Source: a virus. From it: a DNA stretch of 64,000 nucleotides. The stretch is taken from IMG/VR virus record IMGVR_UViG_3300010883_007299, positions 1 through 64,000 of that record; one strand, given 5' to 3'. Under the pieces are notes generated by a model that worked only from the letters and a program-made list of their open reading frames with translations, searched no databases and was not told the origin of the DNA. This document shows, one piece after another, positions 4,519-59,331 of the stretch. Every line of letters starts with the position of its first letter. Positions within the stretch are counted from its first letter, which is position 1. The position numbers were made by a program, and so were the translations under genes.

Positions 4519-5549
4519 CCCCCATAACTCTCCAATAACCAATTAGAAAATTGATTATTAATTAAATGATCTGCCTTATCATAATTCAAAATATCACTAG
4601 ACAACAAATTTAATTCCACTTTAAGAGTTTGTACAATATGTTTTAATTCATCCGTAGATAAATTCCAAATAGATAGATGTTCTGGATATCTAATGGTATT
4701 ATACCAAAGATCAACATTCTTTTCACCACACCACTTAACATAGTTAACCATTTCATCCCAATTATTCCTCATTGGATTCACCATAACACACAACCCAAAA
4801 GGAACTTCTTTCTTTCTATTTTCACTATAATTTTGTTTATTAATATACTCTAAAAAGATTTCAAAATTCTTCATCAACAAATCAAAATCACCATTGATTC
4901 TAATATCCTCATAGCGTTCTTTAATCAAACTATCAATACTAATATTTAAATATACGTTACAACTATCTAATAATTCTTTCACCCTATCATTATACACTGT
5001 ACCATTTGTGGCTATATTGATTTTTAAATCTGGTTTCAATATAGAAACTGTTTCACAAATCTCAAAAACTATCTTCTGTGCTAATGGTTCTCCACCATTA
5101 AATCTCAATTCTTCCAAATGTGGTATAAATTCTTCTAACTGTTTAACAAACGTATCATCATACATCATAGGCATTGGAGGCAATTTATCTCTATTCTTCC
5201 TTATACCGCTACTTAATTTTCCATTGCACATTATACATTCAAGGTTACATTGATTACTCAACTCCAACTCCATCATTGTTGGATACTTTGTAACAGAATA
5301 GGGTTCGTATGCTTTAGATAATGACCAAACATTATCATCAATATTTTTCTTACATATTCCACAAGGGCCTTCAAAAATATTATTAGATAAATCGTTTCGG
5401 AGTTTCTGGAACTTATCACCAAACCAAATATCACTAATAGAATTATCTTTACTCCATATCTCCTTCATATCCACAGTCAACCAACACGGTGCTACTGTAC
5501 CGGAGGTTGTGAAATACATATTATTAAATGGGGCTTTACAACTAGTCAT
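4515..5549 (-). CDS. Radical SAM protein with N-terminal SPASM/twitch-like domain
   Basis: CNLECIMC motif and NGGEP; N-terminal C...G.VAPCW...CGIC. Confidence 0.85.
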   Translation of the reverse strand: MTSCKAPFNNMYFTTSGTVAPCWLTVDMKEIWSKDNSISDIWFGDKFQKLRNDLSNNIFEGPCGICKKNIDDNVWSLSKAYEPYSVTKYPTMMELELSNQCNLECIMCNGKLSSGIRKNRDKLPPMPMMYDDTFVKQLEEFIPHLEELRFNGGEPLAQKIVFEICETVSILKPDLKINIATNGTVYNDRVKELLDSCNVYLNISIDSLIKERYEDIRINGDFDLLMKNFEIFLEYINKQNYSENRKKEVPFGLCVMVNPMRNNWDEMVNYVKWCGEKNVDLWYNTIRYPEHLSIWNLSTDELKHIVQTLKVELNLLSSDILNYDKADHLINNQFSNWLLESYGG

Positions 5550-5934
5550 CTTTTACTGTACAATTTGTTTTACAACACGGACTAATTTTTTCAGGATCAT
5601 CCCAAGACTCAGGTAAAGTTTTTGTATACCATTCGGAATTAATAATATCTTCTAAAGGTTTATTAAAAACATTATACTCATCTTTATTTTTATTATAATT
5701 CATCATCACTTTGTCTTTTGATGTATGATAAGCAGCTCTACCTATATCTACTAATTGATCTTCTATACCATAATGTTTTTTTGGTCCCCATTCTCCTTCT
5801 GGTACAAACACATTACCATAGAGATATAAATTATTTGCAAAATAACAACAAGGCAAAACTTGGCCATCTGGATTGACCAACAAACGCTTTGTAGTCATCC
5901 ACTCACACTTTATATTACAAGCATTCTTCTTCAA
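5542..5934 (-). CDS. Stand-alone SPASM/twitch-like Fe-S domain protein
   Basis: C...LLVNPDGQVLPCCY...CCKTNC; TTG start overlaps the upstream radical SAM gene. Confidence 0.75.
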   Translation of the reverse strand: MKKNACNIKCEWMTTKRLLVNPDGQVLPCCYFANNLYLYGNVFVPEGEWGPKKHYGIEDQLVDIGRAAYHTSKDKVMMNYNKNKDEYNVFNKPLEDIINSEWYTKTLPESWDDPEKISPCCKTNCTVKDD

Positions 5935-6721
5935 TTTCTCTCATTTGATCCAAATTATTTAAATCAAAACTCCTACAATAAAAATTTTTACCTGGCAAAT
6001 TTCTAACAGGTTTCAAAGTTTGTTTACTATCTATACTAATATCAGCTCTAATTAAAACTTTCTTTTTATCATTAGCATCTATAAGTGTAAATTCTCTTTT
6101 ATCTGGATGCCACCTATCAGATAATACATACCGTATTTTTTTCGCACCCTTCTTCTTACATATCTTAGCAATATCATATAAACTATTTTGATTATGTTGA
6201 AAGACCACACAAAATACACTAGTTGTTGATTCTGTAAAGGATAAAACTTCCATATTATTTAATATTTTCTTTAGATTTGTATTTTGTCTATAATGTGAAT
6301 GTTGTTTTTGTGTTGTACCCTCTATATCAAATATAATTTCTAATCTCTTACCGCCAAGAACACCCAAATTCCACCACCACTCTGTATCTCTGATACTACC
6401 ATTAGTGTTGATTTGAATCCATGATGAAGAATTTTCTATGATATACTTAACAATATTAAATATATCCTTATTCATTATAGGATCACCCCACGTACCACAA
6501 AGATCAAATCTTTTGATATGTTGCATTGTCGTTTCGGGAAAAGCTTTTACAAATTCTTCAAGAGACCATTGTATAAGAGGAAGCCAATCTACTTTATCAA
6601 GACCATTAGGATTTGTTCTGTGACACTGAGGACACTTAGCATTACAGTGGGTCGATATATCGAGCCACATTATTAGATCACGTTCTCTATAAAGTTCTGT
6701 GTAATCTAAAAAAGTATCCAT
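5915..6721 (-). CDS. Radical SAM protein lacking the SPASM domain
   Basis: CNAKCPQC motif, CGTWGDP, INTNGS. Confidence 0.85.
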   Translation of the reverse strand: MDTFLDYTELYRERDLIMWLDISTHCNAKCPQCHRTNPNGLDKVDWLPLIQWSLEEFVKAFPETTMQHIKRFDLCGTWGDPIMNKDIFNIVKYIIENSSSWIQINTNGSIRDTEWWWNLGVLGGKRLEIIFDIEGTTQKQHSHYRQNTNLKKILNNMEVLSFTESTTSVFCVVFQHNQNSLYDIAKICKKKGAKKIRYVLSDRWHPDKREFTLIDANDKKKVLIRADISIDSKQTLKPVRNLPGKNFYCRSFDLNNLDQMREIEEECL

Positions 6722-7089
6722 GCCATTATCAACCCCAGGCCACCGTACATAAAAATTCTACCGATGTTGTTAAAGAAAAAAGAATATGCTCTTATAGCTT
6801 TAAGATTGCCAGCAGTATCATGTATCTTCATCGCCCTTTCTAATTCTGTTCTAACAACAAGTGGTAGTGGTCGCATATCAACAGTCCATTCATCCCATGT
6901 CTGAATATAATCTATATAAGATTCTTTATAGGCTGTCTTATAAACTCTCTCTGGATCCCAATCTTCAAGCCAAGCCAAAAGACTAATGAAATCGTGGTCT
7001 GCCATAGCTTTATAATTCGGTATCTTCTCCGGTAGCACATCAGACAATTTTACAGCGACTTGATGTAAAACAGATTTTCTATTTAACAC
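6706..7089 (-). CDS. Hypothetical protein with C-terminal membrane anchor
   Basis: Overlaps both neighbours; hydrophobic C-terminus IFMYGGLGLIMAWILF. Confidence 0.6.
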   Translation of the reverse strand: MLNRKSVLHQVAVKLSDVLPEKIPNYKAMADHDFISLLAWLEDWDPERVYKTAYKESYIDYIQTWDEWTVDMRPLPLVVRTELERAMKIHDTAGNLKAIRAYSFFFNNIGRIFMYGGLGLIMAWILF

Positions 7090-7654
7090 TCTGAATTCTC
7101 CTTGGTGTTTGAGCTTTTGCTAACAGTCTACGTTTCTTCTTAGCACGTTCCAAATGGAACCTATTGGCTTTTTTATCCATAGTTATACCCATTAGATGGT
7201 CATATTCGTGTTGAATAATTCTAGATGTAATGCCTTCAAATTTTTCATTAAAAGGATTACCCTTCTCATCTTCCCACTTCATAAAAATTGTAGTTGGTCG
7301 TTTAACTTCTACTGCTAGACCTGGAAAACTTAAACAACCCTCTACCATATATACTTCATCACCTTCATAATGTAGAATGTCTGGGTTGAAAAAGGTTTGT
7401 TGATATTCTTCTGTACCTTCAGTTGAAAAGTTACTCATACCAATACACATAACCCTAGTAGACAAACCAATTTGGTTTGCCGCCAATCCAATGGCGCCAC
7501 CACCAGCTCTAAGAAATTGCAAACTCTCACTGAGTTCTTCTGGGTCTACAATTGGATTTTCAAAATCAAATTTATCTGCAACCTTCTTTAATATAGGATC
7601 ATTTTCTTTTACTAAAGATTTAAGTCCACCAATATCTTCAACTAATTTTGTCAT
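7079..7654 (-). CDS. def: Peptide deformylase
   Basis: All three motifs present: GLAANQIG, EGCLS, QHEYDH. Confidence 0.95.
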   Translation of the reverse strand: MTKLVEDIGGLKSLVKENDPILKKVADKFDFENPIVDPEELSESLQFLRAGGGAIGLAANQIGLSTRVMCIGMSNFSTEGTEEYQQTFFNPDILHYEGDEVYMVEGCLSFPGLAVEVKRPTTIFMKWEDEKGNPFNEKFEGITSRIIQHEYDHLMGITMDKKANRFHLERAKKKRRLLAKAQTPRRIQSVK

Positions 7655-20386: not shown

Positions 20387-22042
20387 TTAATTTTTCGCAC
20401 CATTACCGTTACCATTTTTGCGTGGAGTTGTTTCTGGTGGTGTATCATCCGCGTCAGGAAAATCATCATCGTCATCATCATCAAATTGGCCAACAGGTTC
20501 TCCAAAGCCACCTTCTGGTCCACCTAAATCTGTTCCTGCGTCTGTAGCAATAGTACCATCTGCCTTCTCAGCTGAAATTTGTGTATCAATTTCTTCTATT
20601 TCTTCATCTGTTTGTTTAAGGACATTCTTCCTTACCCACTCTACGGAGAAATATGTACCAATATATTCTGATACAGTGGTTAATTGATCCACCCTTTCCT
20701 TTAATAACTCAGCATCTTTGAGTTCAAAGAAATGGTTATCGTCTGCAAAGTCATAGATAACGTGTTCTTTAATAGAGTCCCAATCTTCGATGGTAATAAT
20801 ACCCTTCAATACCAATTGGGTCTTTAATACATCTTGGAAGATACCACAAAATTTCTTACGAATTCTCTGAATAAACTTTGCGAATTTTACCTCATCTCTA
20901 GTAATTTCAGCTGACCGTCCCATATTGAAACCACTGTCACTTATTAAACGAGAAATAGGAATATTCAAAGAACGCCAAAGTTTCTCTCTGAAATAAGTAA
21001 CATCATCCATTTCACCTAGATTTTGGCCACCACCCAATGTAGTAATCTCTGTACCACGTCCACCTTCACGGCGTGGCAACCAGAAATCTTCTAACATAGA
21101 CATCTGATTACGGTCATCTTTGACCTCACCAGTGTTCGCATCGTATACCACTTTGTTGCGGTAACGATTCATAATATCTTTTAGATATTGTTCTGCTTTG
21201 GGTTTGGGTAAATTACCAACGTCTATATAAAAAATTCTACGTTCTGGTGCCCGACTAATGCGGTAAATCACCAAAGAATCTTCCATCATTCGTAGTTGGT
21301 TTGTAGATTTAATTGCTTTGTGTAAGTGTCCGTATACCTGTTTGGTAGTTGGATTAAAAATACCAGATGTTACATAACAAATACTATCAGGTGAAATCTT
21401 TATACCTTGTTGGTTCTGTTGAAAACCTCCACCTGATCCTTGAAATGCTGGGTAGACACCCACCTCATTATAAACAAAGAACTCCTGAACTTTTTTAACC
21501 AAAGTAACCGCATCGGGTTTTTGTTTATCTTTTTCTACTACACGAACCTTCTTAATAAATTTAGGATCTATATACCGTAGTTCCGTTATACCTTTACGAG
21601 GTGAACTTTCCTCTATCATCTTATGGTAATGTATTCTACCATCTACATACCAACGTCTAAAAATATCGTGGCCTTTGTGTTTCCACTCCAACAGACGCAG
21701 CATTTCACCAAATTCAACGATAACTTTTTTCTTAATAGAGGTTGATAGGCCGGTATAATCTAAATTTACTTTAACCGAAAGATCGGTTTCATCCGCTGTG
21801 ATAGCCTCCTGAACTATGTCCTCAATAGCTTGGTCACATTCGGGTGCTTCTGATGTTGTGCGGTATTTACGAACAAGGTCCCAATCATTCTTTGCTGCGC
21901 GGTCTACATTTACATACTGGCTAAAAAAGCCAGTACCGCCAGCAATATCTAGTGTACCTTCTTCATCGGAAGGAGCGACGAAGGATTTACCCTTCGCCGC
22001 ATCCTTTTTCCTTTTTATTTCGTATCCAAAAAAATCTGCCAT
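20387..22042 (-). CDS. gp20: Portal protein
   Basis: YRISRAPERRIFYIDVGNLPK, EDFWLPRREGGRGTEITTL. Confidence 0.97.
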   Translation of the reverse strand: MADFFGYEIKRKKDAAKGKSFVAPSDEEGTLDIAGGTGFFSQYVNVDRAAKNDWDLVRKYRTTSEAPECDQAIEDIVQEAITADETDLSVKVNLDYTGLSTSIKKKVIVEFGEMLRLLEWKHKGHDIFRRWYVDGRIHYHKMIEESSPRKGITELRYIDPKFIKKVRVVEKDKQKPDAVTLVKKVQEFFVYNEVGVYPAFQGSGGGFQQNQQGIKISPDSICYVTSGIFNPTTKQVYGHLHKAIKSTNQLRMMEDSLVIYRISRAPERRIFYIDVGNLPKPKAEQYLKDIMNRYRNKVVYDANTGEVKDDRNQMSMLEDFWLPRREGGRGTEITTLGGGQNLGEMDDVTYFREKLWRSLNIPISRLISDSGFNMGRSAEITRDEVKFAKFIQRIRKKFCGIFQDVLKTQLVLKGIITIEDWDSIKEHVIYDFADDNHFFELKDAELLKERVDQLTTVSEYIGTYFSVEWVRKNVLKQTDEEIEEIDTQISAEKADGTIATDAGTDLGGPEGGFGEPVGQFDDDDDDDFPDADDTPPETTPRKNGNGNGAKN

Positions 22043-22047
22043 ACATA

Positions 22048-22055
22048 TATTTATA
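22048..22055 (-). promoter_or_regulatory. T4 late promoter (leaderless gp20 transcript)
   Basis: TATAAATA 5 nt upstream of the gp20 ATG. Confidence 0.8.
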
Positions 22056-47810: not shown

Positions 47811-50800
47811 TTATGATACGTTCATTTGTAGATGCCCATTAGCATCAATTTCTAATGTGGCAGCTTCACCAGCGGCAAACCAGAAAGCAGCGTTTCCGAA
47901 AGTAGCTGTTTGTGATGGAACATTATAGTTTGTGGATACAACGTGTGACAATCCACCTGTCTCACTATTATAAACCAATGCAGTAGCCGCAGGAGCGTCA
48001 TACTTATCTGCATATGTTTTATTAACTATATCGGCATCAACTGTCGGCACAATTGCAGTTTGTGTCTGGGCTTCTAGTAAAATCTTACCAGTTCCATTTG
48101 TCTGCACTTTCAAATCACCGTCTGTAACCGTGGTGATAAGAATATTACTATGTAGTTTTAACTGACCAACAAGAATTTCGTTGACTGTCAAGTTGTTACT
48201 ACCACCACCCAACTGGGTCTCAACATACGTTCTAATTGCTTTCTCTGTTACAAGAGCATTATCTGAATTTCCTGACAATGTTCCATCTGTTGAGAATTCT
48301 GAAACTGTAGCCCCAAAACTTCCCAGAGCAACAGATCCCAGTGACAATTCTTGTAGACCTGAAAGGTCAAAACTCTCAGCATTAAGTGTAGCCTTACCTG
48401 TGGCCTGATGTACTTTAAATAGGTCACCAACTCTGTAGTTACCATCTTGGTCAGTCGATGTGTAGAATACTCTACCACGATCTAACTCAACAACTTCATC
48501 GTCAGCATCAGATGCCTGTAATGGTTCTTCAGTCGGATAGTTGGTGTCTGCAAAACTACCAGTACCAATATCCAAGAAGTCATGTCCAGTCATTCTGATG
48601 TTAGAGTACTTATCCCTAAACGTAATGGCTGTATTGTCAGGCGGAGTTAATGACTTTGTTATAAGCGGCGAACACTGAATTGTTGCCTGTCCAAGACCAC
48701 CTGTAACTGCATTGGCCGTAGAACTAACAAACAAGTGTGCTGTTGTATTCGATGATACACCAACATTCACAGTAAGCGTTGTTGCAGCTATTGCTGTGAT
48801 GGACAATGATTTTCCTGATGCAGGATCACTGGCCCTTGGATATGTATGGTTACTACCATGACTATCATGAGCACAAGTAAATGTTAAACTGTTATTTACA
48901 ATCTCTATCGTTTGACCAACTGTCAAAGTGTGTGTTCCAACAGTCAATACTAATACACCTGTTATGGGATCATATGTTGCCGCAGACGGAGTAAACTTCG
49001 ACTGGCCCTGGTAATTAGTAGCTGCAACAACCAAGTAACTTGTATTGCTGTCATGTGCAAACTGAAAACTAGCTCCTTCTTTAGGTGCCTTAGATAGACC
49101 ATCAGCAACAAAACTGTTACCCACTGGGTTGATGTTTGAATAACCATCACCACTTACGGTTCCTGTTGTTGTTGCAGTCTTATATCCTGTACCACCCACA
49201 GTAATAGTTGATTGGCCAATTACTCCATTACCTATTACAGGAGTTGCAGTTCCTAATGTTGTTGCATTGGGGTCAGTAATTATTGCTGTTGGTGCAGAAC
49301 TATATCCTGCTCCGGTATCAAGAATAAAGATTTTCTGAATCTTCGATGATTTAACCGACACTCTAGCCAAAGCAGTTCTAGTAGGTGAACCACCGCCTGT
49401 AAAATGAATTCGTGGTTCAATTTCATAAGTCGTTGTGGCATTTAGTGATGTCTCAGCAGATGATCTGCCTCCAAAATAATCCCAACCAGAACTTGCAACT
49501 TCATTAACCATTGTACAGACTTTAGTTGATCCGTTATGGGCCTGAATAACGCCTGTCTGACCACAACCAGTACCATCGGTAATAGTCAATCTCATTCCAT
49601 TATAGAAACCAGTTACATTTGTATCTGACAGAGCAAGAGTAATAGTTGTTGCAGTACCAGTCTGAGCAGATGATGTAGTTGTTATATGGTTCTCACCAAC
49701 TGTTGTAACATCAACGTGTCTAACACCACCATCATTGATAGCAAGTGTAGCAGCCCCACTAGCGCCTGCACCCGAAAATGCGATTGTAGCGGTTTCTATA
49801 GTAGCAACATTAAATGTTAGTGCAGGTGCACCGCCGCCTCCCAACTGAGAGTCGTTGATACTAATTGTATCAGCTGCGACATGAGCATCACCACCACTAA
49901 TTAGGAGATGAGCCGTTACTTGACCAGAACTACCAATATCTATATTAACTATTAAGCCAGTACCAGAACCTGTTGTAGCGTCTTGAGTACAAGCAACATA
50001 AGAACCTTGAGTTCGTGAAGCGTGAGCCGCACCAAAAGTACCTAGTGTAGCGCCAACGCCATGGTTATAATTATTACCAGCGTATTCAAATTCGATTCTC
50101 TGTATAGCACCTGTGCCTGCAGTATTATGTCCTGCAAGTACTCGTCCCACTACAGCCTGTTGGCTTAAGTTATTAACAGTACCTGTTGCAGGTACTTCAA
50201 GTGGGTCTACACCAGAAGATACAGCTCCGTATTCTCCGTATGAGTTATTACAGTTTGCAGCTCGAATTGTACCACCCGAATCTGCAAGGTAACCCATGTG
50301 ACAGTAGTATGTAAATACAGAAACAATTTCTGATCTACCAGCATTTTTCATCCATACGCCAACACCATCGTCACATATTTGTGTGAAGTCATTAGAAAGA
50401 ATAGAATCATAACCCATGGGTTGTAATCCACCATCGACTTTAATACCTACAGCGCCCGAATAACTAACGTGTACTGCGTTCTGAACAAACGGTGACTGTA
50501 GATAAACAAGTCCGTTTGGATTAAGAGCAACAGCAACACCAGACCTTGTAGCGCCTGCTGTTTCTGTCGGTCGTTGTAGACCATCAGATGAAGCAGAAGC
50601 CAACTGACCGATAAGACCATTCATGGACACGCCACGAATAGTAGTCTTTTCGGTCATCTGGAACATATCAGAACGGTTGTTAGGTGTTGTACTATCGTCA
50701 GAAGTTCCTGGTCCAGGCCTGACTGTAACACTTCTCATCTCATCACCCATAACAGCAACACCTTCTGGTATTGCCATGGGTAACTGTTCGTCATATGTAC

Positions 50801-52916
50801 CTGACTTGATAAACAAAGTACGACTCGGCATGATTGGCAATGATCGGGCAGGCAATGTACTTAAATTACTTACCAAAGCATTTGTTTCAATCAACACATG
50901 AGCGGTGATGAATTCATCAGCCGCACCCTCAGCATTATTACCAGTCGTTGTCTGTGTAGTAATTACTGGTGACTGTAATGAACTATAAGCTGAATTTGTA
51001 AAGATGTAATTATTAATAACATCTCTTAATTTATTATGAATATCAACCTCGACCTGTCGAGCATTGTTATTTGCAGTAGCGCCGCCACCCTTATATGTAT
51101 CACCACTTGGGCCGCCGACGTATGTATCATTCGCCCAGAACATATGAGTAAAAGCTCGAATCCAACAGTTACCACCATAAGTCATATCGTGGTCTAGAGC
51201 ATCAATCATATAACCAATGTCTCTTTCGCACTTGGCGACATCGTATGTAAATCCGTACCAGATTGAACCTGAGGTAGATGCGTTAATAGCAACTTGCTGT
51301 GCAGCATAAGCAACCATTTCATCTTTCAACCACTCTTTATTAGCGCTCAACAAGGCGTGTGCATATGCTGGAACACCACCCTTAATAGCATTTGAAGTAG
51401 CACTAACAAATGTATGTGCATGAGTAATAGGTGCAACACCGACATTTATTGTAATTGTTGTTGCCGATACGGCATCAACAGCGATAGGTTTATTATAATG
51501 CGGATCAGTTGATCTCGGATATGAATGGTTTGAAGCATGACTATCTTGAGCACAAGTAAATGTTACAGCGCCTGAGTCCATTGTAATGTAAGAACCAGCA
51601 AGTATACTATGTGATCCTACAGTCAATTCCATAACACCAGATGTAGGTTCGTATGTTGCACCTGTTGTTGTAAGGAATGTTAAAGGATTACATTGTGCAG
51701 CCGCTTCTAATCGTACTAGGGCATACTTAATCGTAAGCCAAGGTTTGTCTAAAGAAGTTCCTCGTCCAGTTTGGGTATCATCTAAGCCGTTTTTGCTAAC
51801 ATAAAATATGTTAGGAACAACGCCCGAATATCCCCATTCAGGATCAAGACCCTCAGCATTAACTTTAAGTACTTGTCCTGAAGGACCTATCGGCAAACGA
51901 AAGTTAGCAGTAGCATTTCTGGAGAGTATATCACCCCGTGTGGATAATACTGCCGCAGAATCACCTTCAGCAACTAGGTCCCAATATACGCCAGCGGCAT
52001 CTGTTACTGGATCATTGGTTGCAGATGCAGAGGTGTGAGTTAATTTACAACGATATGAATTAGCAATGTGACCGACAACATCACCAGGACTATATACTGT
52101 AGCATTGGACCATGCATCTTTCCATGTCAAGCCTTCTACAACGAGTTCCCAATGTGTCGTCGAGTCTGGTGCATTACCTGTAGTATCAATCTTGGCGGCA
52201 AAAGAGTGGCCACCGTAGATTACTAAATCGCCCGGATTATAAGCCGTAGCGTTGTTATATGCACCTTTCTGTTTAAATCCTGTAGATAAAATATCCCAAT
52301 CTAGGGTATTGTTATAAGGAACAACACCAATATTCTGTCTTATCGCAACATAGTTATAACCGCCGTAGGTTACAACATCACCCTGTTGGTAGTTTGAGCC
52401 CACTACCCACGAATCTTCAAATTCTAAACCTGAAGCAAATAGTGCCCAGTTAGCATCTGTTAATGTGGCTCCACCAGTATGTTGTGTTGTACAAATGTAA
52501 GTTGAGGGACCATACTTAACTACATCATTAAGTTTATATGCGGTAGCATTTGCATAGTTACCTTTCCATGCAAAACCAGAGTTATACTCTGTCCATTTTG
52601 CTGTATCGTCATATAGACTAGCCTGTGATGTATGACCAGTATTACAAATATAATTCTTACCACCCCAAGATACTACTTCATCTACTTTGTAATACGTTGT
52701 TCCACCCCAAGCGCCTTTAAATTCTTGACCACTTGTAAACTTTTCAGTTTTACTAGCGGCAAGGTCTACATAAAAGTCCGCGTTGGCGGTATGGTTCTCT
52801 TTTACGACATAAACGTTACCACCGTACTTTACACAATCGTCTTTGATGTATACAGTACCGGTAACCCAGTCGCCTTTAAAATGGAATCTTAGTCTTCCTA
52901 ATACAAAATCTGCCAT
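47811..52916 (-). CDS. Large tail fibre/spike with chitin-binding-like repeats and a pectin-lyase-like beta-helix
   Basis: Multiple W...T.Y...D.V.YGG..Y repeats; FYVSKNG.D...KPWLTIKYA and IKSGTYDEQLP...GDEMRSV.VRP. Confidence 0.8.
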   Translation of the reverse strand: MADFVLGRLRFHFKGDWVTGTVYIKDDCVKYGGNVYVVKENHTANADFYVDLAASKTEKFTSGQEFKGAWGGTTYYKVDEVVSWGGKNYICNTGHTSQASLYDDTAKWTEYNSGFAWKGNYANATAYKLNDVVKYGPSTYICTTQHTGGATLTDANWALFASGLEFEDSWVVGSNYQQGDVVTYGGYNYVAIRQNIGVVPYNNTLDWDILSTGFKQKGAYNNATAYNPGDLVIYGGHSFAAKIDTTGNAPDSTTHWELVVEGLTWKDAWSNATVYSPGDVVGHIANSYRCKLTHTSASATNDPVTDAAGVYWDLVAEGDSAAVLSTRGDILSRNATANFRLPIGPSGQVLKVNAEGLDPEWGYSGVVPNIFYVSKNGLDDTQTGRGTSLDKPWLTIKYALVRLEAAAQCNPLTFLTTTGATYEPTSGVMELTVGSHSILAGSYITMDSGAVTFTCAQDSHASNHSYPRSTDPHYNKPIAVDAVSATTITINVGVAPITHAHTFVSATSNAIKGGVPAYAHALLSANKEWLKDEMVAYAAQQVAINASTSGSIWYGFTYDVAKCERDIGYMIDALDHDMTYGGNCWIRAFTHMFWANDTYVGGPSGDTYKGGGATANNNARQVEVDIHNKLRDVINNYIFTNSAYSSLQSPVITTQTTTGNNAEGAADEFITAHVLIETNALVSNLSTLPARSLPIMPSRTLFIKSGTYDEQLPMAIPEGVAVMGDEMRSVTVRPGPGTSDDSTTPNNRSDMFQMTEKTTIRGVSMNGLIGQLASASSDGLQRPTETAGATRSGVAVALNPNGLVYLQSPFVQNAVHVSYSGAVGIKVDGGLQPMGYDSILSNDFTQICDDGVGVWMKNAGRSEIVSVFTYYCHMGYLADSGGTIRAANCNNSYGEYGAVSSGVDPLEVPATGTVNNLSQQAVVGRVLAGHNTAGTGAIQRIEFEYAGNNYNHGVGATLGTFGAAHASRTQGSYVACTQDATTGSGTGLIVNIDIGSSGQVTAHLLISGGDAHVAADTISINDSQLGGGGAPALTFNVATIETATIAFSGAGASGAATLAINDGGVRHVDVTTVGENHITTTSSAQTGTATTITLALSDTNVTGFYNGMRLTITDGTGCGQTGVIQAHNGSTKVCTMVNEVASSGWDYFGGRSSAETSLNATTTYEIEPRIHFTGGGSPTRTALARVSVKSSKIQKIFILDTGAGYSSAPTAIITDPNATTLGTATPVIGNGVIGQSTITVGGTGYKTATTTGTVSGDGYSNINPVGNSFVADGLSKAPKEGASFQFAHDSNTSYLVVAATNYQGQSKFTPSAATYDPITGVLVLTVGTHTLTVGQTIEIVNNSLTFTCAHDSHGSNHTYPRASDPASGKSLSITAIAATTLTVNVGVSSNTTAHLFVSSTANAVTGGLGQATIQCSPLITKSLTPPDNTAITFRDKYSNIRMTGHDFLDIGTGSFADTNYPTEEPLQASDADDEVVELDRGRVFYTSTDQDGNYRVGDLFKVHQATGKATLNAESFDLSGLQELSLGSVALGSFGATVSEFSTDGTLSGNSDNALVTEKAIRTYVETQLGGGSNNLTVNEILVGQLKLHSNILITTVTDGDLKVQTNGTGKILLEAQTQTAIVPTVDADIVNKTYADKYDAPAATALVYNSETGGLSHVVSTNYNVPSQTATFGNAAFWFAAGEAATLEIDANGHLQMNVS

Positions 52917-53349: not shown

Positions 53350-53687
53350 TAGCTAACCTCCAATACACTTAAAAAACATTCTAGGTGGTTGACATCTCCA
53401 ACAACTCTTATTTTATCCCCAGCCCCCAAATTAACTGGCTTATCCAGTATCAAAGTATTTTGAGCTGCAATCTCTAAAGATTTACCTATATGTCTAAACG
53501 TTGTACCACCATCTACTGTTACTTTAACATCAACATTACCCACACTTGATAAATCTAAATTTGAAATATAAACAGCGTGCAATATAGCTCTAGAAGATGT
53601 CGGACTTGCTGGACAAGTATAGATATCCGCTGTACTGTTATCTATCTGTGCTACTGCCGCACCTGCGTTTTTAAAATTACTTGCCAT
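53349..53687 (-). CDS. Small virion structural protein
   Basis: MASNFKN...IYTCP...KPVNL..GDKI pattern typical of phage structural ORFs. Confidence 0.65.
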   Translation of the reverse strand: MASNFKNAGAAVAQIDNSTADIYTCPASPTSSRAILHAVYISNLDLSSVGNVDVKVTVDGGTTFRHIGKSLEIAAQNTLILDKPVNLGAGDKIRVVGDVNHLECFLSVLEVS

Positions 53688-53690
53688 ATA

Positions 53691-54065
53691 TTATAACGCA
53701 ATAGCAAATGCTATTATGTCTCCATCAGTAGCTAATGTTCCATCTGCATTAGGTAAGGTTAATACTCTATCAACATCTGGATCTTGGACAGTAAGTGTTA
53801 GCTCTGCCGCATCAGGTGTTGAACCTTCAAACACTATATTTGAACCATCTAAATGTATATCATTTGAAGTTGAATTGTTTGCTTGTGTTACATCATGGAG
53901 TGTGACACCAACCGCACCACCGACTTCCTTGATGTTATTACTACTATCTTTAATATAGAGTTTTTGGTCAGCGGTATTGATTGCAATTTCGCCAACTTCT
54001 AAATCACCAGTACCAGGAGGGGTACTAGCAATTTCGTTACGTTTTACCTTGATTACTTGAGGCAT
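53691..54065 (-). CDS. Short fibre-type protein
   Basis: IKVKR...DLEVGEIAINTADQKLYIKD N-terminus (T4 gp34-like); LTLPNADGTLAT. Confidence 0.7.
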   Translation of the reverse strand: MPQVIKVKRNEIASTPPGTGDLEVGEIAINTADQKLYIKDSSNNIKEVGGAVGVTLHDVTQANNSTSNDIHLDGSNIVFEGSTPDAAELTLTVQDPDVDRVLTLPNADGTLATDGDIIAFAIAL

Positions 54066-54093
54066 AAATTACCCTCTATGGTTATTATATATC

Positions 54094-54138
54094 TATTTAT
54101 ACAAAAAACCATCTTATCCACTGGTTTATTTATAAATA
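54094..54138. promoter_or_regulatory. Late promoters, including bidirectional palindrome TATTTATAAATA
   Basis: TATAAATA on - at 54101-54094 and 54134-54127, and on + at 54131-54138. Confidence 0.75.
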
Positions 54139-54143
54139 CTTTC

Positions 54144-54299
54144 ATGTCACAAAAATTAAAACAAAGTAGGCGTGTAGGAAAGAAACTTATAATAGTAATG
54201 CCGGCCAGTTCAGCTGAACGTCACAATGGATGGCCACCAGATAGACAATCTCGTAAGAAAGAACCAAAATTAAAAATACTATTTAAACATATCAAATAA
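54144..54299 (+). CDS. 51-aa Lys/Arg-rich peptide
   Basis: MSQKLKQSRRVGKKLIIVMPASSAERHNGWPPDRQSRKKEPKLKILFKHIK; ATG 5 nt after TATAAATA. Confidence 0.5.
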   Translation: MSQKLKQSRRVGKKLIIVMPASSAERHNGWPPDRQSRKKEPKLKILFKHIK

Positions 54300-56288
54300 C
54301 AATGGATCTCCTCTTTTAAATGTTGTTGCTATTACATCTCTAATATATGTTTCAGTTCGTTTGTCTCCACTATAATCTAACCATTTAAATTTAGATAACG
54401 TAGATGCATGATTGCCTGTCGTTTGCAATATGTCTTTAGAAACCTTTATTCTCTCAGGTTCATCCATTGGTTCGCTCCACCAATTAGATTTTGCTACTTT
54501 AAAATACTCTTGCCAATCATGTTCCATGGTAAATACAAACCCTTTAGTATAATCGTAATCCGGGGTTACTATTAAATCTAGATTAAATTTCATTATACTA
54601 TATAAGTTTTTTACGTCATAAGTATTTCGCATATATTGTTTTAATTCTTTTCTATATTCTGCAAAGTTAAGTAACAATAAAATTGTAATATATTCTTCAA
54701 CATCGTACATAGGTTTTAATGTTGGCACTTCTTCAACTTCATATTCCCAAAACCAATCATTTTCCAAATCAAATATAAAGTTATTGATATGTTCATTTAT
54801 TTTTGAATATATAGAATATACTGTGGGATATTTTGGATTCATAAAAAAGTTATTATGAAAATCTCTATAAAAATCTTCATATGATATATTGTGTGTGAGC
54901 TTTAAATAAATCGAAATGTATCGTGTAAATCCAAATCCATGAAAACTTCTTATCATAGCTGAAAAATTATATATATCTATATAATCTAATCTACTATATG
55001 TAGAAGTAGATATAACAAATTCGCCTGACGAGGTTACCTCTTTTGGATTATCTTTCTTTCGGCGTCGTTGTTGTGGGTGTCGTTCTATTGTTTCTATCTG
55101 CCATTTCTTTTTATAAGCTGGTTCATTGGCTGGTGAATTTGGTAAAATTTGGAAATGAAATACTATAAAGTTTTCTAGTATACCTTCATTCATTACATCA
55201 AAAAAGTTTTGTTGCCATCTATCATAATTATCTCCTGGCAGTCCCATTATAAAACAAGATTCAATAGGTATATTGTGATTACCAGTTTCTTTTGCTAATT
55301 TAATTAGTTCTTTATGAGGAATATTTTTCCGGTCAATAGCTTTTAATACAACATCGGATGTTGATTGTAAAGGTAATACACAAGTGGTTAACATCTCAGC
55401 GTCCCTAGCAATTTTTAATATTTCTTTTGTATAGTCCAATTTAGTTTTAGTGTGTTGTAAAAAAATTCTTGGTGGGTAACCACTCCTTTCTTTAACTTCT
55501 GCCATCTTGGATGTTATGTCTATATCTCTAGGAAAAATTCCAAAGTTAGCATTAATAACATCTATGAATCCAATGCCAGCTTCCCCAGCAAACTCTATAT
55601 CTTTATACACCACTTCTAAAGGAATCTTTCTAATTTTTTGTAGAGTAGCACTACCCCAATCACAGAATGTACAACCAAATGGACAACCCCTATCACTTTC
55701 TAACATGAGAGCAGTATTGTCTGAACTATGACAAAACTTTTTACTATCATGTGCAAGTTCCATAAATTCTTCAGCATAATCATGGAAATATGATTTAGTA
55801 AACTCTTTTTTTAATATTGGCATACCAGTATCACCACCATTCTTTAAAACCAATCCAGGAATATCCTCAAAATCCATAGTGCCTAATACAACTTCTTCAA
55901 CTATTCTAGGAAAGGAATACTCACCTTCATGTTTAACAACAATATCTATTTGTGGATTTTTATAGAAAAACTCTATGTCTCTGTAATAAGGTTCTGGTCC
56001 TCCTACAACGACAAGACAATTCGGGTTTTCTTTTTTTATTTCGGCTGCTAGATTATAATTAGTTTCCCTGTTCCAGGTATAAACAGAACAAGCAAAAATG
56101 TTTAGATTTTTTAAATCATATCTAGATAATTTAATATGGTTCTTCCTATAGTATATCGGTTTATACCAATTAACTTCATCACCCAAACCAGGAACATCAT
56201 CAACAGACCCTTTAAGAATTCCATGTATATATGGTAGATATTCAAAAGAGGTATATGAACATGGATTACTATATAATATATCAATCAT
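54279..56288 (-). CDS. Cobalamin-binding radical SAM enzyme (class B methyltransferase-like)
   Basis: B12-binding-type N-domain (SVYTWN, VVVGGPE, EGE) followed by RGCPFGCTFCDWG. Confidence 0.88.
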   Translation of the reverse strand: MIDILYSNPCSYTSFEYLPYIHGILKGSVDDVPGLGDEVNWYKPIYYRKNHIKLSRYDLKNLNIFACSVYTWNRETNYNLAAEIKKENPNCLVVVGGPEPYYRDIEFFYKNPQIDIVVKHEGEYSFPRIVEEVVLGTMDFEDIPGLVLKNGGDTGMPILKKEFTKSYFHDYAEEFMELAHDSKKFCHSSDNTALMLESDRGCPFGCTFCDWGSATLQKIRKIPLEVVYKDIEFAGEAGIGFIDVINANFGIFPRDIDITSKMAEVKERSGYPPRIFLQHTKTKLDYTKEILKIARDAEMLTTCVLPLQSTSDVVLKAIDRKNIPHKELIKLAKETGNHNIPIESCFIMGLPGDNYDRWQQNFFDVMNEGILENFIVFHFQILPNSPANEPAYKKKWQIETIERHPQQRRRKKDNPKEVTSSGEFVISTSTYSRLDYIDIYNFSAMIRSFHGFGFTRYISIYLKLTHNISYEDFYRDFHNNFFMNPKYPTVYSIYSKINEHINNFIFDLENDWFWEYEVEEVPTLKPMYDVEEYITILLLLNFAEYRKELKQYMRNTYDVKNLYSIMKFNLDLIVTPDYDYTKGFVFTMEHDWQEYFKVAKSNWWSEPMDEPERIKVSKDILQTTGNHASTLSKFKWLDYSGDKRTETYIRDVIATTFKRGDPLLFDMFK

Positions 56289-56943
56289 TGATTAGGGCCT
56301 CGTATTCTTTTTTTAATAACTCTGATTTATTTAAATCTATTTTCTGTAATCTTTTAAACTGTTCTAGTTTAGCTTGGTCGTTAGTACCTTTTATTTTTTC
56401 AAATAAATGTAAAGTAAATCGGTTAGCTTTCTGAAAATCTGATGAGAGCCAATCTTTACCAGTAACATATGTTCTACATTCAACAAATCCACATTGACAA
56501 TTTTCAAATTGCAGAACATCATCGTCATGTATAGTACCATAGTCTACAGATAGTTCCTCATCCTTTTTAATATTTGTTAGTGTTTTAATACACATTTGTC
56601 CACTAACATAGCAATTAGGTTTACAAGTATGATTGATAGTAGCGGCATATTTATCCGTACCCATTTGTAATAACATATGATTAGGATCAATCTGAACACC
56701 AGTTGCAAAGTTCCATCTTGATTTAACAGCGTTATATTCTTCAACTGTAAGTACTATACCACCTGCTAATACAACTGTTTCTCCAGCACCTATATCTTCT
56801 ATAGCAAATCTACCATTGCCTGCATTAGGAATTAATGATGGCCTTACTTCTGTTTGTGGTGACATCCAAGATAGACCAATTGGATTTTTATCCAACCAAT
56901 CAATCAATTCGTTTATTCTGGAAATTTTCATATAAGTGTTCAT
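56281..56943 (-). CDS. SET-domain lysine methyltransferase with post-SET motif
   Basis: AGNGRFA, INHTCKPN, EELSVDY, post-SET CQCGFVEC. Confidence 0.9.
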   Translation of the reverse strand: MNTYMKISRINELIDWLDKNPIGLSWMSPQTEVRPSLIPNAGNGRFAIEDIGAGETVVLAGGIVLTVEEYNAVKSRWNFATGVQIDPNHMLLQMGTDKYAATINHTCKPNCYVSGQMCIKTLTNIKKDEELSVDYGTIHDDDVLQFENCQCGFVECRTYVTGKDWLSSDFQKANRFTLHLFEKIKGTNDQAKLEQFKRLQKIDLNKSELLKKEYEALIND

Positions 56944-57889
56944 ACCCTATTGTTAAAGTTTTCACTTGTTCATCATAATCTGTCCAAAGTTCTTGAACAT
57001 TTCCCCAATGCGCTTGGAATTCGGTTCGCAGTTCATGTTCCAACTGCATCTCTGGTTTTGGGATATATTCAAATCCAGTATAGTCTGTATACCATCTTCC
57101 TTTACGGCACCAACTTACAATTCTAGGACGTGGTTTTAAATTAGGGAAATGTGATATGTACATTTCATTTTTATTATACTGCATGGCAACATCAGTATGT
57201 TCTATGTTATTAGCAAATTTAATTGTTTCCCAATCTAAAAATTGACTAGTCTTTAACTCTGGTGTATATTTAAAAAACGACCCAGCACCATTTCTATTTT
57301 TATGTCTCAAATATCGTTCTTGACATCTTAATATTTCTGTATCTATATTCCAAGATTTGGTTGCTATTTTTTTATTTCTATTTAAATCAGCTTCTCCATA
57401 TCCAATTACAGGAAAACCATCAACTAGTTCCATTGCCCATGGAAGAATACAAAATTGAGGAGTCCAAGATTGTATTAACGATCCAATATCCCATGCTTCA
57501 TTTTCTAAAAATTTCATATAATCTAAATCTAGAATAAGTGGTTCTATATTATATTCATCACACCACTCTACAGCAAATTTCATATCATGCCAATTCCAAG
57601 AATCAGTCAATCTAATAATAACTATTTTAAAAGGCACACCCGATAATCTAAATGATTCTGCTACTACAGCAGAGTCCATACCTCCACTAAAATAGATAGT
57701 GGGTATTTCTCCGTTAGCTTCATCATATATAAGTTTTGCTGTTGCTATACATTCTTCACGCCAAGGTAATGGTTCTCTAGTTAATCTTCCATACCTTACA
57801 AAAAATTCATCACTATCCTTTTCACGAAATGAAAATGGAATATCATTATAACCCCATACAAATGTATTTCTATAATTCACGAAAGACAT
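56900..57889 (-). CDS. PP-loop (adenine nucleotide alpha-hydrolase-like) protein
   Basis: YFSGGMDS motif. Confidence 0.6.
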   Translation of the reverse strand: MSFVNYRNTFVWGYNDIPFSFREKDSDEFFVRYGRLTREPLPWREECIATAKLIYDEANGEIPTIYFSGGMDSAVVAESFRLSGVPFKIVIIRLTDSWNWHDMKFAVEWCDEYNIEPLILDLDYMKFLENEAWDIGSLIQSWTPQFCILPWAMELVDGFPVIGYGEADLNRNKKIATKSWNIDTEILRCQERYLRHKNRNGAGSFFKYTPELKTSQFLDWETIKFANNIEHTDVAMQYNKNEMYISHFPNLKPRPRIVSWCRKGRWYTDYTGFEYIPKPEMQLEHELRTEFQAHWGNVQELWTDYDEQVKTLTIGYEHLYENFQNKRID

Positions 57890-58316
57890 AACAATTTACT
57901 CCCCAATCAGCCTGTTCAAATTCAGACTCTTTAGTAAATCCAGCTCGAATATATAAAGGCAGTACTGCTTCGTTAGGATAACCCCACACACCATCGCCAC
58001 CTAAATCTTTTGCTGTTTGTATTGTTTGATCCAATAACAATTTGCCAAAACCTTTGCGTCTATATTCTGACAAAACATAAAATGATCGAACACGATATAG
58101 GTTATTAGGAGTTAAATATACACTGAGAGTACCGCAAAGTTTAAATCCTATATACACTCCAAAGAATGTTACCTTTACTTCATCGTCAGATAAAGTCCAC
58201 TTTGCATCTTTTTTGTAACTCATTTTTGCATATTTTTTATGTTCTCTGCCAGGATGTAATAACTCTATCAATGGTAATGTATCTTTAAACTCCACTGTCC
58301 TCATGTCATAATTCAT
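57870..58316 (-). CDS. GNAT acetyltransferase
   Basis: FYVLSEYRRKGFGKLLL acetyl-CoA motif and LYIRAGF. Likely start 58316. Confidence 0.88.
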   Translation of the reverse strand: MNYDMRTVEFKDTLPLIELLHPGREHKKYAKMSYKKDAKWTLSDDEVKVTFFGVYIGFKLCGTLSVYLTPNNLYRVRSFYVLSEYRRKGFGKLLLDQTIQTAKDLGGDGVWGYPNEAVLPLYIRAGFTKESEFEQADWGVNCYVFREL

Positions 58317-58318
58317 AG

Positions 58319-58332
58319 TATAAATATTTATC
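58319..58332. promoter_or_regulatory. Overlapping divergent late promoters
   Basis: TATAAATA on + (58319-58326) and GATAAATA on - (58332-58325). Confidence 0.6.
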
Positions 58333-59331
58333 ATGGCCACCTATGAAGAAAAAATGTATGCTGCACTATCTAGAGATAAAATAAATTTAGATATACACAG
58401 TAAGTGTACTTTAAAATGTAGTGGTTGTGCTAGAAAACAATATAATGATTATAAAATAAAAGTACCCGGCGAAAGAATGTCTATAGAATGTTTTAAAAAA
58501 ATCATAGAATTTTTTGTTTGTGTAAATTTTTGTGGCCAAATATCAGATCCTATATTACATCCAAAATTTCCTGAATTTTTAAAACTTACTTATGAAAAAG
58601 GAACCGAGGCCAGAGTGGCCACTGCTGCTTCTCACAAACCTTTATCTTGGCATAAAAAATGTTATGAAGCAAATCCAAAGGCAAGATGGATATTTGGTAT
58701 AGATGGTCTTCCAGAAGAAAGCCATAAGTATAGAGTTAATCAAGATGGTATAAAGGAATTTGAAAGAATGAAGTTATGTGCTGAAATGGGATTAGATACT
58801 TTGTGGCAATATATAATTTTTGATTATAATGAAAATCATGTAGATGAAGCCAGACAAATGGCTACCGATATTGGTGTTTGGTTTGTAGAGTTACGATCTA
58901 CAAGGTGGAATAAACAAACCATACATTTAAAACCTAAACAAGAAGATTCTTTTGGAGAAAAAAATCTTATAGAAAAATTACGTCCAAAATGTATAGAAAA
59001 ATTAGATAAACTTAAACCAGAAAGTTTGGCTAGACATGGACCAAAACAATTAGGTCATTCATCACTTGGATATCTTCTTCCTTGTTGTTGGCAAGATCCA
59101 TCAGCTATTAGAATTAAAGAAACTGAAGATATAAAAGATTTATTTCAAGATCATTTAAAAATAGAGAATGTAGATACTATAGAAGAAATTTTATTTTCTG
59201 ATGAATGGATAAACTTTTTTAAAGTATTGGTAACTGATCCAGAAAATGCTCCATCTAGCTGTCAAAGACGTTGTAAGGAGTTGGTAGTTGATGAACATGA
59301 CCGTATAATAACAAATGTAATAGTCAAATAA
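58333..59331 (+). CDS. Radical SAM protein with fused SPASM/twitch-like domain
   Basis: CTLKCSGC, CGQISDP, GYLLPCCW, CQRRC. Confidence 0.85.
   Translation: MATYEEKMYAALSRDKINLDIHSKCTLKCSGCARKQYNDYKIKVPGERMSIECFKKIIEFFVCVNFCGQISDPILHPKFPEFLKLTYEKGTEARVATAASHKPLSWHKKCYEANPKARWIFGIDGLPEESHKYRVNQDGIKEFERMKLCAEMGLDTLWQYIIFDYNENHVDEARQMATDIGVWFVELRSTRWNKQTIHLKPKQEDSFGEKNLIEKLRPKCIEKLDKLKPESLARHGPKQLGHSSLGYLLPCCWQDPSAIRIKETEDIKDLFQDHLKIENVDTIEEILFSDEWINFFKVLVTDPENAPSSCQRRCKELVVDEHDRIITNVIVK

Follow-up and report, generated by a model that had tools for sequence, protein, structure and literature searches.

The window analyzed here, 64,000 nucleotides (nt) of the IMG/VR virus record IMGVR_UViG_3300010883_007299 (positions 1 to 64,000), encodes a string of four overlapping minus-strand genes for a GNAT-family acetyltransferase, a stand-alone PP-loop enzyme, a SET methyltransferase and a cobalamin (B12)-dependent radical S-adenosylmethionine (rSAM) enzyme, and this cassette meets tail-to-tail a small plus-strand open reading frame (ORF) for a lysine- and arginine-rich protein of 51 amino acids (aa). 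The data favor a functional module; that the peptide is its substrate we infer. Our leading interpretation, held tentatively, is of a portable protein- or peptide-modification module that belongs to a fiber-linked hypervariable island of marine T4-like phages and that, in the clade of the window, may act mainly on the 51-aa peptide.

A first-pass annotation of this DNA had described four overlapping genes and the tail-to-tail arrangement with the peptide gene. ORF coordinates and family matches bear out this gene content; the promoters it described are pattern matches that are not significant alone. The overlaps along the string, in the order GNAT, PP-loop, SET and B12-rSAM, are 20, 44 and 8 nt, and the 3' ends of the B12-rSAM gene and the 51-aa ORF share 21 nt. 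The five genes are as follows.

57870-58340 (-): GNAT N-acetyltransferase, 156 aa from a GTG start, with alternative ATG starts at 58334 and 58316
56900-57889 (-): stand-alone PP-loop ATP-pyrophosphatase, 329 aa, predicted to be of the asparagine synthetase B (AsnB)/beta-lactam synthetase synthetase-domain type, without a glutaminase domain
56281-56943 (-): SET methyltransferase with a post-SET zinc motif, 220 aa
54279-56288 (-): cobalamin-dependent radical SAM methylase, 669 aa, of the TokK/CysS/KedN5 clade
54144-54299 (+): basic small protein, predicted to be disordered, 51 aa, conserved, net charge about +12

Coupling of a conserved small protein to the enzyme cassette

Homologues of the 51-aa protein (10 Lys, 5 Arg) were found in the L010-type contigs, in loci L020, L021, L022, L023 and L034, and in P0020-P0022; six locus types conserve the protein. 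Two segments are invariant, KLK..R near the N-terminus and WPPDR..RKK.PKL, and the intervening stretch and the C-terminus are variable; several lysines are invariant, and Asp33, in WPPDR, is the sole invariant acidic residue. The protein is 84% identical in four close IMG/VR contigs. Variable sites of the ORF fall 4/5/14 at codon positions 1/2/3, and synonymous change among identical-residue codons is 0.26-0.35, against 0.29-0.34 in the adjacent PP-loop gene, a codon pattern and a matching synonymous divergence that indicate a protein under purifying selection, co-diverged with the PP-loop gene. Judged by these patterns the ORF is a real, conserved protein-coding gene, and conservation, on which the first-pass annotation had made its reading depend, holds across all six locus types. 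AlphaFold gave a model with a mean predicted local distance difference test score (pLDDT) of 66 and a predicted template modeling score (pTM) of 0.15, suggesting a disordered protein, as expected for an enzyme substrate.

Relatives of the peptide are few: three clusters among 1.84 billion representatives and three in a 5.8-billion set. No longer, fused or bacterial homologue was found among the 1.84 billion representatives or in genome searches, and the ESM Atlas held no usable match. A host protein mimic or fused homologue was rejected on the small number of clusters, the two genome matches (L043 and L044) being chance ones, one inside an ABC ATPase and the other off-frame. An RNA or mobile DNA element at this position was likewise rejected, because Rfam returned nothing at 53600-54700 and because of the codon-position pattern and synonymous divergence given above.

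Linkage was assessed by tblastn and all-against-all clustering over 36 loci; the contexts of relatives come from pattern-based locus searches and many of the contigs are short, so that absences are weak evidence. About a dozen divergent marine contigs (including L017, L020-L024 and L027-L029) bring the four enzyme families together in shuffled orders, from which it follows that the enzymes do not assort independently; independent assortment was the pattern that the first-pass annotation had named as telling against its reading. The GNAT gene directly adjoins the PP-loop gene in the window and in L017, L018, L020, L029, L033 and L036, and this adjacency is kept even in L014 and L015, where the PP-loop relatives are at 31% identity. 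Representative gene orders are given below.

Window and L010 type: GNAT, PP-loop, SET, B12-rSAM, then the peptide on the opposite strand
L023: GNAT, SET, PP-loop, then the peptide and a methyltransferase on the opposite strand
L020: GNAT, GNAT, PP-loop, then the peptide and a methyltransferase on the opposite strand
L021, L022 and L034: peptide, PP-loop, B12-like, rSAM; in L022 then SET, GNAT and GNAT on the opposite strand
L024: GNAT, SET, PP-loop
L027: B12-rSAM, SET, B12-rSAM, PP-loop, B12-rSAM
L028: second PP-loop, B12-rSAM, SET, B12-rSAM, PP-loop, B12-rSAM, GNAT
L029: B12-rSAM, PP-loop, GNAT
L014 and L015 (31% identity): GNAT, PP-loop; B12-rSAM and other rSAM genes nearby

In every known context the peptide gene adjoins the cassette, usually abutting the PP-loop gene, and it does so in at least four gene orders. 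The peptide motif is confined to cassette-bearing contigs in IMG/VR, the peptide was seen only beside the cassette in metagenome loci, and in the PP-loop tree the loci with the peptide group as a single clade. Both L022 and L034 show an 8-nt overlap between the peptide stop and the PP-loop start codon. The expected co-occurrence of enzymes and peptide was thus found in one direction: the peptide is linked to the cassette, above all to the PP-loop gene, but L027 and L028 have the enzymes without it.

In a sister clade (L025, L031 and L032) an unrelated, conserved, acidic ORF of 102-103 aa runs 4 nt into the PP-loop start, and may be a different small-protein partner. This second overlapping small ORF indicates that coupling of a small protein to the PP-loop gene is a recurring arrangement.

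L025 8455-8763, L031 2192-2503 and L032 1017-1328: acidic ORF, 102-103 aa, Ser/Thr/Tyr-rich, ending in EEE or EEDI

The next gene in L025, and also in L030, gives a weak ATP-grasp or L-amino-acid-ligase-like match.

Enzyme families of the cassette

The PP-loop protein of the window had no Pfam, NCBIfam or PHROG match at E <= 0.01. Its 17 homologues, at 48-96% identity, all come from marine metagenomes, and across 18 homologues the FSGGMDS loop keeps G69, G70, D72 and S73 invariant, with S68 in at least 90%. The AlphaFold model (pLDDT 82.6, pTM 0.86) recovered the PP-loop fold in the Foldseek search that had been proposed for it (E 3e-5). With VIA-align, the synthetase domains of asparagine synthetase, beta-lactam synthetase and carbapenam synthetase aligned at Z 14-15 over 220-248 residues (Z 11-15 and 215-248 residues when TsnB9 is included), against Z of at most 9.5 for LarE, NadE, TilS and QueC. 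At 329 aa the protein has no extra domain and lacks the N-terminal nucleophile (Ntn) glutaminase domain of true asparagine synthetase B; it also differs in this from CarA and beta-lactam synthetase, which have an N-terminal domain. Residues 1 to about 33 are conserved but modeled at low confidence. Family scans of the 18 members gave weak matches in the P-loop region alone (QueC, Asn_synthase, NAD synthase), and models of WbuX/PseA-type N-acetyl-sugar amidotransferases were not among their NCBIfam or Pfam matches at E <= 1. The nearest ESM Atlas clusters are viral, a motif scan of 185,579 species genomes found no relative, and tblastn against 50,697 deposited phage genomes found no match. Because the modeled fold is closest to AsnB-type synthetase domains, family matches are weak and the Atlas neighbors are viral, we assign the protein, on the strength of its model, to a new viral subfamily of AsnB-type enzymes, predicted to adenylate carboxylates and form amides.

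The B12-rSAM enzyme matched PF04055 (47.8 bits) and, just above the cut-off of 32.1 bits, PF02310 (32.4 bits). It aligned to TokK (7kdx) at E 2.9e-66 over residues 14-597, including the CxxxCxxC region, where its cluster motif is CPFGCTFC, and the C-terminal domain; CysS matched at 4.5e-34. KedN5 was the best NCBIfam family (2.1e-45), with 155 bits against a cut-off of 700, making the protein a homologue and not a member of that curated subfamily. The match to B12 methylases for peptides that are made on ribosomes and modified post-translationally (RiPPs) was much weaker (1e-11 to 1e-13). The window enzyme is thus homologous over its full length to TokK/ThnK, the carbapenem C6 methylases, and to CysS and KedN5, and the three B12-rSAM paralogues per cluster in L027 and L028 recall ThnK/L/P of thienamycin; a GNAT and an AsnB-type enzyme beside a B12-rSAM enzyme presumably parallel ThnF and ThnM of thienamycin clusters. 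Unlike TokK-type carbapenem systems, these genes are set in a marine phage that is presumably lytic, and no crotonase (CarB/ThnE, PF00378) was found in G000 or in the records that hold L010 and L015, which are incomplete. A carbapenem-like pathway, considered on account of the TokK-like and CarA-like enzymes, the GNAT and the three B12 paralogues, was rejected for lack of that crotonase in these incomplete records. The B12-rSAM protein had no tblastn match in the deposited phage genomes. A cobalamin-dependent phage enzyme would imply a host that makes or imports B12 and would argue against hosts without cobalamin metabolism.

The SET protein (PF00856, 8.9e-12, 45.8 bits) carries the motifs NHTCKPNC, ELSVDY and, in the post-SET region, CQCGFVEC, which align to NHxCxPN, ELxxDY and CxCx4C of MLL1; the MLL1 SET/post-SET match (E 1.2e-7) is stronger than that to BurB (E 1.4e-5). 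The protein found no tblastn match among the deposited phage genomes, in keeping with the earlier remark that SET domains are unusual in tailed phages. It resembles viral and prokaryotic SET lysine methyltransferases, such as chlorovirus vSET and the bacterial and archaeal SET enzymes that act on basic chromatin proteins, in being small and stand-alone with intact catalytic and post-SET motifs. There is also a Lys/Arg-rich candidate substrate here, the 51-aa protein; unlike in those systems, the SET gene of the window is carried by a tailed phage and embedded with rSAM, PP-loop and GNAT genes. The GNAT enzyme matched PF00583 (1.9e-11) and phrog_1249.

Phage setting and candidate substrates

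The source record is 96,473 bp long, with an estimated completeness of 53%. It comes from deep marine samples. The major head, portal, sheath and large terminase genes in the window are of T4 type, and of the deposited phages only Pelagibacter phage Mosig matches it at the DNA level, weakly; the carrier is presumably a lytic, uncultured marine T4-like phage. The cassette region is AT-rich (G+C about 31-33%) and is flanked by a gene for a 1701-aa fiber protein and by a block of glycosyltransferase family 8 (GT8)-like and other genes. Directly downstream of the cassette and in the same orientation are fiber-like genes at 53691-54065 and 47811-52916. Zaragoza-Solas et al. (2020, PMC7029224) noted GT8 glycosyltransferases and radical-SAM cassettes, without analyzing them, in the host recognition cluster (HRC) of pelagimyophages and cyanomyophages. 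The island of the window, with the cassette between the fiber gene and the GT8-like block, corresponds to the HRC: the window too has a variable island with fibers, GT8 and rSAM cassettes inside a structural module, here of T4 type. That paper reads the island as serving host-surface modification, and describes neither the cassette of four enzymes nor its PP-loop family, nor the small protein coupled to it.

Should the peptide be the substrate, the AsnB-type PP-loop enzyme would adenylate a carboxylate of the disordered peptide, with Asp33 as the candidate, and an amine could resolve the adenylate, yielding either an amide or, with one of the invariant lysines Lys38, Lys39 and Lys42, an Asp-Lys isopeptide. 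Invariant lysines or the N-terminus would be N-methylated by the SET enzyme and N-acetylated by the GNAT enzyme, and the TokK-type enzyme may C-methylate an unactivated carbon, possibly repeatedly. The product would be a small, polycationic late peptide that perhaps associates with virions or DNA or acts on membranes. We favor the peptide because of its linkage and translational coupling to the predicted amide-forming enzyme, its predicted disorder, its invariant Asp and Lys residues and the near-universal protein specificity of SET enzymes.

Several observations weigh against the peptide as substrate, and many of them speak for tailoring of a glycan or small molecule, a possible but less probable alternative in which the four enzymes edit a sugar or metabolite by N-acetylation, carboxylate amidation, C-methylation and N- or S-methylation, and the peptide is a late protein apart from them, related to the cassette by linkage alone. 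The nearest characterized relatives of the B12-rSAM enzyme, given that TokK, CysS and KedN5 outscore the RiPP-type enzymes, are iterative small-molecule C-methylases, and the fold of the PP-loop enzyme equals that of beta-lactam, carbapenam and asparagine synthetases. AsnB-type enzymes amidate sugars and metabolites too. Clades that have the peptide and clades that lack it share the same conserved, low-confidence N-terminal 40 residues of the PP-loop protein, suggesting that their substrate is shared as well. The complete clusters L027 and L028, in a sister clade, keep PP-loop, SET, B12-rSAM and GNAT genes without such a peptide; a third clade (L027-L029) has no recognizable small partner, nor was any other K/R-rich small ORF found in peptide-less clusters. 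Neighboring genes in related loci include AdoMet decarboxylase, glutamine-synthetase-like, weak ATP-grasp, 2-oxoglutarate (2OG) oxygenase and solute-binding protein genes. Glycosyltransferases flank the cassette, and the GT8 and other glycosyltransferase-like genes match the HRC as described in PMC7029224. BurB (PMC12542666) is a SET enzyme that methylates free methionine, a counter-example to protein-only SET substrates. On the other side, nearly all characterized SET enzymes are protein lysine methyltransferases, and the one encoded here is nearer to MLL-type enzymes than to BurB; no sugar-nucleotide or sugar-amidotransferase family was among the NCBIfam or Pfam matches of the PP-loop protein, and the missing crotonase also counts against a carbapenem-like route. 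Tailoring of a glycan or metabolite would furthermore leave unexplained the conserved small ORF that is linked and translationally coupled to the PP-loop gene in two clades.

Features of the peptide gene and its record also tell against the peptide. The window copy has no Shine-Dalgarno sequence, and its TATAAATA box lies 5 nt from the ATG, too near to leave room for a ribosome-binding site. Counting for the peptide, a close relative has TATAAATA about 37 nt upstream and GAGGA 8 nt ahead of the ATG. The 96-kb record, itself 53% complete, has no match to PqqD/the RiPP recognition element (RRE; PF05402) and no lasso-type protease (PF13471) of note, the best match (E 0.045, 10 bits) lying inside a fiber gene; other proteases and exporters were not searched for. 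The PP-loop-SET-B12 block (window 54279-57889 versus L010 10001-13608) is 96-97% identical in protein to four IMG/VR contigs, whereas the flanks are much more diverged in the same contigs (GNAT 83%, peptide 84%, fiber-like p124 83%, rSAM2 76%), suggesting recent recombinational exchange of the block apart from the peptide and GNAT genes.

Proteins other than the peptide are unlikely, though credible, targets: the enzymes could modify the virion fibers encoded downstream, or host proteins, and the peptide could be an unrelated cationic late protein, for example a nucleic-acid-binding or membrane-active one. The co-oriented position of the cassette directly upstream of the two fiber-like genes, the classical role of SET and GNAT enzymes as protein modifiers, and the constancy of the enzymes from clade to clade beside a varying small ORF (F4, F12 or none) speak for such targets, the last of these fitting a target common to all these phages, but elsewhere the cassette is not beside fiber genes within the sequence at hand, and no action on folded structural proteins is known for TokK-type or AsnB-type enzymes. 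That the genes form no functional unit at all, and are independent cargo of a hypervariable island brought together by cassette shuffling, we consider very improbable. The island is mosaic, with blocks at different identities and widely varying gene order, but despite that reshuffling the four families are repeatedly found in company, at 30-97% identity, and gene overlaps of 4-44 nt indicate co-translation. On balance we rank peptide-directed modification, still tentatively, as the likeliest of these explanations, ahead of glycan or small-molecule tailoring and then of other protein targets.

A bolder version of peptide-directed modification, which we regard as doubtful though possible, is that a presumably lytic phage makes its own ribosomal, multiply modified cationic peptide, which would amount to a RiPP-like class not described before and to the first SET/GNAT "tail-writing" system of a tailed phage; here the activated Asp might become an amide, an Asp-Lys cross-link or a small-molecule tether, as on a carrier peptide. 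As in RiPP clusters, a short precursor-like gene lies beside the modifying enzymes in all six locus types. Prophage RiPP or bacteriocin clusters, such as that of sublancin on SPbeta, likewise pair a phage-carried ribosomal peptide with modifying enzymes, but they belong to temperate phages, have exporter and immunity genes and make known RiPP classes, whereas here the carrier is T4-like and presumably lytic, such a combination of enzymes has not been described, and neither an exporter nor a protease turned up, the search having covered lasso-type proteases. Lasso biosynthesis, in which a precursor accompanies an AsnB-like macrolactam cyclase, also places a short ORF next to an AsnB-type amide-forming enzyme, and GNAT-tailored lasso peptides exist. 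A lasso-peptide cluster was nevertheless rejected, for want of a B-type transglutaminase-like leader protease and of an RRE in the 96-kb record; the conserved part of the 51-aa peptide shows no verifiably suitable spacing between an N-terminal residue and Asp, and the macrolactam-cyclase NCBIfam model matched one of the 18 PP-loop members, at E 0.35.

If the peptide is the substrate, the cassette would represent a new enzyme logic for ribosomal peptides, joining an AsnB-type ligase, a TokK-type C-methylase, SET and GNAT, present in abundant uncultured ocean phages, and would offer a first way into what radical-SAM cassettes do in the host-recognition islands of phages. With a glycan or metabolite as substrate, too, the cassette defines a new viral PP-loop family. 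Whatever the substrate, it brings phage-borne relatives of carbapenem-type B12 methylases and a SET lineage absent from deposited phage genomes, and the cobalamin requirement constrains the host, which must supply B12.

Promoter-like boxes and neighboring genes

Promoter-like boxes, all of them pattern matches, and the gene that diverges from the cassette are listed here.

54094-54101 and 54127-54134 (-): TATAAATA late-promoter-like boxes facing the fiber-like gene 53691-54065
54131-54138 (+): TATAAATA late-promoter-like box, 5 nt ahead of the ATG of the 51-aa ORF
58325-58332 (-): GATAAATA box inside the first codons of the longest GNAT ORF
58333-59331 (+): divergent radical SAM gene, 332 aa, outside the four-gene string

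The TATAAATA word credited to the 51-aa ORF as a perfect late promoter is present at that position, but it is an 8-mer at chance frequency (13 found in the window, 9.0 expected), 5 nt from the ATG. It forms part of the palindromic TATTTATAAATA and so also reads as a minus-strand box toward the fiber-like gene. Similarly, the GATAAATA box placed ahead of the cassette exists, but it occurs at chance frequency (5 found, 6.1 expected) and lies inside the longest GNAT ORF. Copies of TATAAATA stand 5-6 nt ahead of the ATG at three genes, those for the portal (22042-22055), the 51-aa protein (54131-54146) and the divergent rSAM protein (58319-58335); if these boxes serve as T4-type late promoters, the transcripts of the three genes would be leaderless or almost so. 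The 332-aa rSAM gene (ATG at 58333) overlaps the longest GNAT ORF (GTG at 58340 or ATG at 58334) head-to-head, which leaves no intergenic promoter space, so that GNAT translation may in fact begin with the ATG at 58316.

Other neighbors were seen in related loci. In L028, whose cluster has two PP-loop genes, three B12-rSAM genes, a SET and a GNAT gene, an S-adenosylmethionine decarboxylase gene (2105-2542; PF02675, 1.4e-11) lies directly upstream of the enzymes. In L025, glutamine-synthetase-like (PF00120, 2.8e-16), IscA/HesB-like and staphylococcal-nuclease-like genes (5398-7334) lie upstream of the PP-loop gene. Close relatives of the window have an extra 389-aa radical SAM gene between the divergent rSAM and GNAT genes (L010 8383-9552, minus strand; PF04055, 3e-10); its presence there and absence from the window suggest a cassette indel. 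The divergent 332-aa rSAM protein itself (PF04055, 7e-4; phrog_21308, 1.3e-16) is encoded by a gene with a 67% DNA match to a gene of Pelagibacter phage Mosig, and its relatives recur near distant PP-loop/GNAT pairs, with two homologues in L015.

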